In this document: in pieces, positions 35,954 to 43,001 of the stretch
How positions within the stretch are numbered: position 1 is the stretch's first letter
Layout: every line of letters begins with the position of its first letter
Assembly: GCF_041886205.1 (NCBI RefSeq)
Contig: NZ_CP169029.1
Strand: one strand, 5' to 3'
Source of the DNA: Escherichia coli
Lineage (GTDB): Bacteria; Pseudomonadota; Gammaproteobacteria; Enterobacterales; Enterobacteriaceae
DNA: 64,000 bases
The notes under the pieces: generated by a model
Told to the model about the DNA's origin: nothing
Database searches by the model: none
What the model saw: the letters and a program-made list of their open reading frames with translations, nothing else
Position numbers and translations under genes: made by a program

Positions 35954-36024
35954 GTATGTGTTATCGTTACGTCATCCTCGCTGAGGATCAACTATCGCAA
36001 ACGAGCATAAACAGGATCGCCATC

Positions 36025-37095
36025 ATGCAAAAAGACGCGCTGAATAACGTACATATTACCGACGAACAGGTTTTAATGACTCCGGAACAACTGAAGGCCG
36101 CTTTTCCATTGAGCCTGCAACAAGAAGCCCAGATTGCTGACTCGCGTAAAACCATTTCAGATATTATCGCCGGGCGCGATCCTCGTCTGCTGGTAGTATG
36201 TGGTCCTTGTTCCATTCATGATCCGGAAACTGCTCTGGAATATGCTCGTCGATTTAAAGCCCTTGCCGCAGAGGTCAGCGATAGCCTCTATCTGGTAATG
36301 CGCGTCTATTTTGAAAAACCCCGTACCACTGTCGGCTGGAAAGGGTTAATTAACGATCCCCATATGGATGGCTCTTTTGATGTAGAAGCCGGGCTGCAGA
36401 TCGCGCGTAAATTGCTGCTTGAGCTGGTGAATATGGGACTGCCACTGGCGACGGAAGCGTTAGATCCGAATAGCCCGCAATACCTGGGCGATCTGTTTAG
36501 CTGGTCAGCAATTGGTGCTCGTACAACGGAATCGCAAACTCACCGTGAAATGGCCTCCGGGCTTTCCATGCCGGTTGGTTTTAAAAACGGCACCGATGGC
36601 AGTCTGGCAACGGCAATTAACGCTATGCGCGCCGCCGCCCAGCCGCACCGTTTTGTTGGCATTAACCAGGCAGGGCAGGTTGCGTTGCTACAAACTCAGG
36701 GAAATCCGGACGGGCATGTTATCCTGCGTGGTGGTAAAGCGCCGAACTATAGCCCTGCGGATGTTGCGCAATGTGAAAAAGAGATGGAACAGGCGGGACT
36801 GCGCCCGTCTCTGATGGTAGATTGCAGCCACGGTAATTCCAATAAAGATTATCGCCGTCAGCCTGCGGTGGCAGAATCCGTGGTTGCTCAAATCAAAGAT
36901 GGCAATCGCTCAATTATTGGTCTGATGATCGAAAGTAATATCCACGAGGGCAATCAGTCTTCCGAGCAACCGCGCAGTGAAATGAAATACGGTGTATCCG
37001 TAACCGATGCCTGCATTAGCTGGGAAATGACCGATGCCTTGCTGCGTGAAATTCACCAGGATCTGAACGGGCAGCTGACGGCTCGCGTGGCTTAA
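36025..37095 (+). CDS. aroF: DAHP synthase, Tyr-sensitive (AroF)
   Basis: [30 protein letters not shown]; ORF opens upstream at 35956. Confidence 0.95.
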
Positions 37096-38269: not shown

Positions 38270-39430
38270 TCAGGTTGGATCAACAGGCACTACGTTCTCA
38301 CTTGGGTAACAGCCCAATACCTTCATCGAACGGGTGATGTCCCCTAACTCTTTCAATGCTTTTTGCATTTCCGCTGATTCAAGATTGGCCTGAATATCCA
38401 GATAAAACATCTCTTCCCATGGATTACCGTGAATCGGGCGTGACTCCAGACGGGTCATAATCAGATTGTGGTTGCGCAATACCAGCAATGCTTCAACCAG
38501 CGCACCAGCTTGTTGTCCGGTCGCCATTAACAACGTCGTTTTCGCCGGAACCTGGTCAGACACATTAATGGCTTTACGTGCCAACACCACAAATCGGGTG
38601 AAGTTTTGTCGCTGATTCGCTTCAATACGCTCCAGTACCTGCAAACCGTACAAAGTGCCGCCAGCTTCGCTTCCCAACGCAGCAACATGCGGTGATTTTG
38701 CCTGTGCAACCTTTTCCATTGCCGCAGACGTACTTTCGGTATATTCAATCTTCCAGTGCGGATAACGATTAAGGAATTTGCTGCATTGCTGGAATGGCTG
38801 CGGATGGCTGTAGACCGTATTAATGGTGGATAAATCAGTCGTGCCGGAGACCAACAAACAATGGTCGATAGTTAACGTCATCTCGCCAACAATCGACAAG
38901 CTGGTATGTTGCAGCAGATCGTAAACGTCGTTTATGGCACCGGAGCTGGTATTTTCAATCGGTACGACGGCATAGTCGGCCTGGCCGGTTTCCACCTGAT
39001 TAAAAATATCGGCAAATTTGGCGCAGCCACTTTCAATGAATTGCTCAAAGTGACGGGCAGCATACTGGCGCGCCGCAAGATGGGAATAAGAACCTTTGGG
39101 GCCGAGAAAAGCGATGCGTGCTGAGTGCGGATTAATTTTATTGAGATGTTGCTGGAGCAAAGCCTGCTGAGTTAATACGGAATCTTCAATGATGAGCTGG
39201 AACAGGCGAGTAATGTAATGGGCGTCCAGATGGTGCGCTTTACCGAGCGTAATTAATCTTTCCAGTAAATCGCGTTCACGATCAATATCACGTACCGGGC
39301 GATGCGAGAGCAGTTTGGCTTTTCCCACCTCGACGGCCAGTTCGCGCCGCTCTGCGAGTAATGCTAATAATTTTTCATCCAGCGCGCTGATTTTCTCTCG
39401 CAGCGCCAGTAACGGGTTTTCCGATGTCAT
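38270..39430 (-). CDS. pheA: Chorismate mutase / prephenate dehydratase (PheA)
   Basis: 386 aa, [32 protein letters not shown]; ACT domain at C-terminus. Confidence 0.95.
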
Positions 39431-39452
39431 AGTGTTGCCTTTTTGTTATCAA

Positions 39453-39482
39453 TAAAAAAGGCCCCCCGATTTGGGAGGCCTT
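39453..39482 (-). terminator. pheA attenuator terminator
   Basis: On minus strand GGCCTCCC-aaatc-GGGGGGCC hairpin followed by T-run, between pheL and pheA. Confidence 0.6.
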
Positions 39483-39528
39483 ATTGTTCGTCTTCGCATT
39501 CTGTTTCACACGACGAAACGCCTCCCAT

Positions 39529-39576
39529 TCAGGGGAAGGTAAAAAAGAATGCGAAGAAAAACGGTGTGTGTTTCAT
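39529..39576 (-). CDS. pheL: pheA leader peptide (15 aa, [15 protein letters not shown])
   Basis: Seven Phe codons in 15; not in the ORF track because of its size. Confidence 0.85.
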   Translation of the reverse strand: [15 protein letters not shown]

Positions 39577-39629
39577 GTTTGTTTCCTTAAGTGACTTTAG
39601 TACAGTACCCGTACTGTTTTCACGCTGTC

Positions 39630-39656
39630 AACAAAAAACGCGCCCGAAGGCGCGTT
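39630..39656 (-). terminator. Terminator downstream of raiA
   Basis: On minus strand GCGCC-ttcg-GGCGC hairpin plus TTTTTT. Confidence 0.5.
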
Positions 39657-39679
39657 GGCGATACACTCAATATAAAGGA

Positions 39680-40075
<396 letters not shown>

Positions 40076-42872: not shown

Positions 42873-43001
42873 CCTAAAGAATCAAGACGATCCGGTACGC
42901 GTGATTTTCTTTTCACATTAATCTGGTCAATAACCTTGAATAATTGAGGGATGACCTCATTTAATCTCCAGTAGCAACTTTGATCCGTTATGGGAGGAGT
43001 T

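Follow-up and report, generated by a model that had tools for sequence, protein, structure and literature searches.

A common, probably ancestral threonine codon in the PheL leader peptide of an otherwise standard Escherichia coli pheL-pheA attenuator

Leader-peptide attenuation of pheA is established in Escherichia coli K-12. The trpL, hisL, thrL, leuL, and ilvL leaders likewise combine a short ORF enriched in codons for the regulatory amino acid with alternative 1:2, 2:3, and 3:4 pairings and, as in pheL, an intrinsic terminator ahead of the biosynthetic gene; they differ from pheL in their control codons and in the operons they serve, and they are not homologous Rfam families. According to the pheL scheme, scarcity of charged tRNA-Phe would cause the ribosome to stall on the seven Phe codons of the leader; the stalled ribosome would block pairing of segments 1 and 2, so that segment 2 would form the antiterminator with segment 3 and RNA polymerase would continue into pheA. 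With plentiful Phe, the ribosome would reach the UGA stop codon, helix 1:2 and the 3:4 terminator would form, and transcription would end ahead of pheA.

An enterobacterial group of pheL leaders ending in UUC_CCC_UGA undergoes roughly 15% incidental +1 frameshifting, the stimulation of which was ascribed mainly to residues located just ahead of CCC_UGA (Gurvich et al., Nucleic Acids Res 2011, PMC3082878). Three wild-type codons upstream gave wild-type frameshifting, the Pro codon at -10 (codon 5) had a two-fold effect, and no influence of frameshifting within pheL on pheA expression was found (PMC3082878). The leader analyzed here, from a 64,000-nt stretch of E. coli contig NZ_CP169029.1 (hereafter, the window), shares with this group both the UUC_CCC_UGA ending and the conserved core TTYTTYTTYGCNTTYTTYTTYACNTTYCCNTGA. 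Nothing in that study points to codon 4 (PMC3082878). In the species comparison made here, residues 2-5 vary freely within the group, and at least 14 different residues occur at position 4, among them the Thr of the window. The +1-frame continuation past CCC_UGA, a 51-codon extension, is the same in the window and in K-12, including its stop codon.

The closest described system is the K-12 pheL/pheA attenuator (b2598; RF01859), which occupies the same locus in the same gene order (bamD-raiA-pheL-pheA, with tyrA-aroF convergent). In the window, the ORFs run in the order aroF and tyrA (plus strand), pheA, pheL, raiA, and bamD (minus strand), and rluD and yfiH (plus strand). The leader lies directly upstream of pheA on the same, minus strand (pheL stop, 39529; pheA start, 39430), and pheA is collinear with K-12 b2599, in agreement with the RefSeq annotation of identical DNA. 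The original prediction had placed pheL and translated it correctly, giving no strand; the ORF is read on the minus strand (ATG AAA CAC ACA CCG TTT TTC TTC GCA TTC TTT TTT ACC TTC CCC TGA), and translation of the plus strand over 39529-39576 yields no comparable peptide. Seven of the 15 codons (codons 6-8, 10-12, and 14) encode Phe, and the terminal codons are UUC_CCC_UGA. An AAGGA motif that may serve as the Shine-Dalgarno element, judging from its sequence and position, is the same in K-12. The presumed pheL-pheA promoter is marked by a perfect -35-like TTGACA hexamer, which matches the first bases of a published promoter/leader reporter fragment (PMC3082878), while a sigma-70 consensus promoter scan of 39300-39800 returned no site, no -10 hexamer reaching the threshold of at least four of six matches. 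The features of the locus are collected in Table 1.

Table 1. Coordinates and basis of assignment of features of the pheL-pheA regulatory region (window positions, except for the last line)
Feature	Coordinates	Strand	Basis and remarks
pheA	38270..39430	-	ORF list; 386-aa chorismate mutase/prephenate dehydratase, regulated by the attenuator
Phe leader/attenuator RNA	39452..39577	-	cmscan against Rfam RF01859 (Phe_leader)
Intrinsic terminator (3:4)	39452..39482	-	Terminator scan, Rfam structure, MFE fold
Predicted antiterminator (2:3)	39462..39536	-	Constrained fold; 39536..39517 pairs with 39482..39462
Helix 1:2, long hairpin	39486..39562	-	Rfam consensus and ViennaRNA MFE; 22 pairs
pheL leader ORF	39576..39529	-	Translation; 15 codons and UGA
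Phe codon 14	39537..39535	-	Translation
Phe codons 10-12	39549..39541	-	Translation
Phe codons 6-8	39561..39553	-	Translation
Polymorphic base (codon 4, second position)	39566 (codon 39565-39567)	-	Alignment with K-12
Shine-Dalgarno-like AAGGA	39584..39588	-	Read from sequence; 7 nt upstream of the pheL AUG
TTGACA, -35-like hexamer of the presumed pheL-pheA promoter	39626..39631	-	Read from sequence
raiA terminator	39656..39637	-	Terminator scan
raiA	39680..40021	-	ORF list, K-12 annotation; upstream bound of the pheL regulatory region
Third PheL variant ORF	171-218 of extracted loci L123 (EC9) and L125 (ACN001)		

Several observations concern the genes that surround the leader. In K-12, the sRNA RaiZ (b4805) is annotated over the 3′-terminal part of raiA and the terminator of that gene. 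The corresponding part of the window (about 39634-39795, minus strand) differs from K-12 by two SNPs, at 39793 and 39728, and retains an intact terminator hairpin (39656..39637). A match to the Rfam RyfD/Ysr155 sRNA family (RF02768; 85.5 bits) was found at 42883-43000 on the plus strand, truncated at the edge of the searched range and located 3′ of yfiH and ahead of clpB. The mechanically listed aroF ORF (35956-37095, plus strand) extends over 379 aa from an upstream ATG; the true start is probably internal, and the extra length is likely to stem from the way ORFs were listed.

Alignment with K-12 MG1655 (NC_000913.3, 2736500-2739500; pheL b2598 at 2737599-2737646) revealed that 249 of the 250 nt of the raiA-pheA intergenic region are the same, the polymorphic base being the only variable column. 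At codon 4, the window has ACA for Thr (C on the coding strand) and K-12 has ATA for Ile (T), a difference of one transition. The K-12 leader likewise comprises 15 codons, seven of them for Phe, ending in UUC_CCC_UGA, and it has the same 5′ UTR, helix 1:2, antiterminator, terminator, and spacer to pheA. Thus, the Thr-for-Ile difference that the original prediction had reported relative to K-12 is borne out, since K-12 does encode Ile and not Thr at this position, and the Phe control codons and attenuator hairpin that it described as intact are the same as in K-12 across the 250-nt alignment. Background divergence between the two sequences amounts to 43 of 3,001 aligned bases (1.43%), from which about 0.7 differences would be expected in a 48-base ORF; the single difference observed fits this rate. 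The Thr4 polymorphism is already known and catalogued: the PheL peptide of the window is identical to RefSeq WP_001386991.1, named "pheA operon leader peptide PheL", which is found, for example, in E. coli SK1144 and, with the synonymous codon ACG, in strain N96. In SK1144, the DNA is 100% identical to the window across the whole intergenic region. The peptide string was not found in a literature search.

At the RNA level, cmscan aligned the leader to the Phe_leader model over positions 1-125 of 125, untruncated, with a score of 132.2 bits (gathering score, 55; E = 1.6e-24). The 5′ arm of helix 1:2 (39562..39539) lies over the Phe codons, with its 3′ arm at 39509..39486, and the terminator, which sits between the leader ORF and pheA, has a stem (39482..39458) of 10 pairs, 7 of them G-C, followed by a T-run, TTTTTTAT. 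The predicted antiterminator, which sequesters the 5′ arm of the terminator, is the MFE structure when the ribosome mask ends at 39544, corresponding to an A site at codon 7 and a stall at the early Phe codons. Of the four ribosome masks, only this one gave it, the MFE structure reverting to the terminator when the mask extended further 3′; the folds represent equilibrium and not co-transcriptional folding, so that this prediction is indicative only. Base-for-base identity to the experimentally studied K-12 attenuator is stronger support than this masked-fold computation, and from the agreement of 249 of 250 nt with the K-12 regulatory region, Phe-responsive read-through would be expected in vivo.

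The codon-4 SNP corresponds to position 12 of the Rfam model, within its unpaired first 15 positions and four bases ahead of helix 1. The ACA/ATA difference thus precedes the Phe codons that act as the sensor and, with no helix covering it, falls outside the RNA switch. Both alleles have the same MFE structure at -51.7 kcal/mol (ViennaRNA; a 126-nt leader and a 206-nt transcript were tested), and around the initiation region, too, the local folds of the Thr and Ile alleles agree. Since the SNP lies outside every Rfam or predicted helix and the fold is shared by the two alleles, it is reasonable to expect that regulation of pheA is unchanged with Thr4, as the original prediction had proposed.

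To place the two alleles within the species, a 61-base query centred on the SNP was used, and the locus was found in 5,422 of 5,426 complete E. coli genomes. The exact 61-mer of the window (ACA, Thr) is present in 3,560 of the 5,422 genomes (65.7%) and that of K-12 (ATA, Ile) in 1,383 (25.5%), the remaining 479 having some other change inside the 61 bases; because the complete-genome set is non-random, with many laboratory K-12 derivatives and outbreak clones, these percentages describe the collection and not the species. All three sampled genomes from the remaining class (N96, EC9, and ACN001) encode Thr4. Carriers of Thr4 include O157:H7, O111:H- 11128, BL21, S88, and MNCRE44, and carriers of Ile4 include K-12 derivatives, NCTC86, PCN061, and various human and pig isolates. 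That Thr4 is commoner than Ile4 in E. coli is a robust conclusion. The RefSeq product name ("phe operon leader peptide" versus "pheA operon leader peptide PheL") was considered as a proxy for the allele but proved unsuitable: PCN061, annotated with the second of these names, has the Ile 61-mer.

A third PheL variant (RefSeq WP_001700969.1) occurs in EC9 (NZ_CP194953.1) and ACN001 (NZ_CP007442.1), in which Thr13 is replaced by Ile (ACC to ATC). It is accompanied by a T-to-A change two bases past the stop codon (offset 49, counted from the A of AUG). The Thr13Ile change lies within the 5′ arm of helix 1:2 and touches the RNA switch, whereas the codon-4 SNP does not.

The polarity of the substitution was approached by scanning one genome per species with the degenerate core TTYTTYTTYGCNTTYTTYTTYACNTTYCCNTGA, which returned at least 120 Enterobacterales loci, one per species. 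Among the matches listed, E. albertii is the only congeneric outgroup (E. fergusonii, E. marmotae, and E. ruysiae are not among them); the leader of its type strain, compared over the ORF only, since an indel lies downstream of the ORF, has Thr4 with codon ACT. The presence of Thr4 in E. albertii and in most E. coli suggests that Thr is probably the ancestral residue and that the Ile of K-12 (ATA) is probably a derived minority allele, with E. albertii alone as the outgroup for this polarity. Twelve of the 120 listed species leaders have no in-frame ATG and show an apparent GTG or TTG start after a good Shine-Dalgarno sequence; they belong to the genera Klebsiella, Kluyvera, Raoultella, Pseudocitrobacter, and Chimaeribacter, with GTG at loci L019, L028, L034, L058, L071, L084, L098, L099, L109, and L111 and probably at L059, and TTG at L116.

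The best-surviving alternative to a neutral substitution, although an improbable one, is that codon 4 is functional, in that a rare ATA would alter the speed of the first ribosome and the way it is coupled to the paused RNA polymerase, and hence basal or induced read-through into pheA. Of the Ile codons of E. coli, ATA is the rarest and is read by a minor, lysidine-modified tRNA-Ile2; early translation of the leader might therefore proceed at slightly different speeds in the two alleles. In the same direction, ATA occurs at codon 4 in none of the 108 ATG-start leaders of other species among the matches listed, where Ile is encoded by ATC (four leaders) or ATT (three), making the rare codon of K-12 the odd one, and slightly more pairing is predicted at the SNP base with Ile (pairing probability, 0.14) than with Thr (0.01; ViennaRNA). 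Against this reading, the position is hypervariable: the 108 listed leaders contain 14 residues and 30 codons at position 4 (L22, K16, V15, T15, I7, F7, R7, D6, Q5, and others), indicating that codon 4 is not constrained. Position 5 is Pro in 78 of the same 108 leaders, while the 10-residue core was fixed by the search pattern and is therefore invariant by construction. Moreover, the base is unpaired, the MFE and initiation-region folds do not distinguish the alleles, both alleles are common among natural isolates, and the stalling signal at Phe codons 6-14 is located downstream and unchanged.

A related and very improbable variant of this idea turns the comparison around and holds that the K-12 attenuator may itself be atypical, the derived ATA slowing entry into the Phe run, shifting basal read-through, or tying it to the supply of tRNA-Ile2. 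If true, attenuation parameters measured in K-12 would be unrepresentative of roughly two-thirds of E. coli, namely the carriers of ACA.

The original prediction had regarded the difference as a strain marker, which, taken literally, would make Thr4 a derived allele marking the lineage of the window itself. Thr4 does differ from the K-12 reference, as such a reading would have it, but it is the majority allele, present in at least 3,560 of the 5,422 complete genomes, or at least 66% (among them O157:H7, O111:H-, S88, and BL21), and it is shared by E. albertii. Positions 28000-52000 of the window, which contain an rRNA operon (16S and 23S), clpB, ffh, and dgcN, are 100% identical to E. coli wlxctx60 (NZ_AP045833.1), a strain isolated from Ursus thibetanus japonicus, an Asian black bear; over these 24 kb, no more than 11 complete genomes have at least 99% identity. 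The source lineage is therefore uncommon and its pheL allele is common, so that Thr4, being spread far more widely than the lineage, does not mark the strain. A lineage-specific marker is thus contradicted by both the frequency and the outgroup data and is scarcely credible; it is K-12 and its relatives, and not the window, that carry the minority and probably derived allele.

Errors of sequencing or assembly typically show up as one changed base, which was the sole ground for considering one in the window; such an error is ruled out by recurrence of the same 61-mer in 3,560 independent complete genomes, by the 100% identity of the 250-nt region in about 40% of evenly sampled genomes, by the identity to wlxctx60 over 24 kb, and by the dedicated record WP_001386991.1.

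The window thus very likely contains a standard E. coli pheL-pheA attenuator with a common, probably ancestral Thr4, in which the Thr/Ile difference is very probably neutral. For annotation purposes, the pheL of the window is intact and has its own RefSeq protein record, and nothing suggests that attenuation of pheA here departs from the textbook case. The substitution itself, an ordinary allele, matters very little; what it illustrates, with pheL codon 4 as an example, is that the K-12 reference can depart from the consensus of the species.
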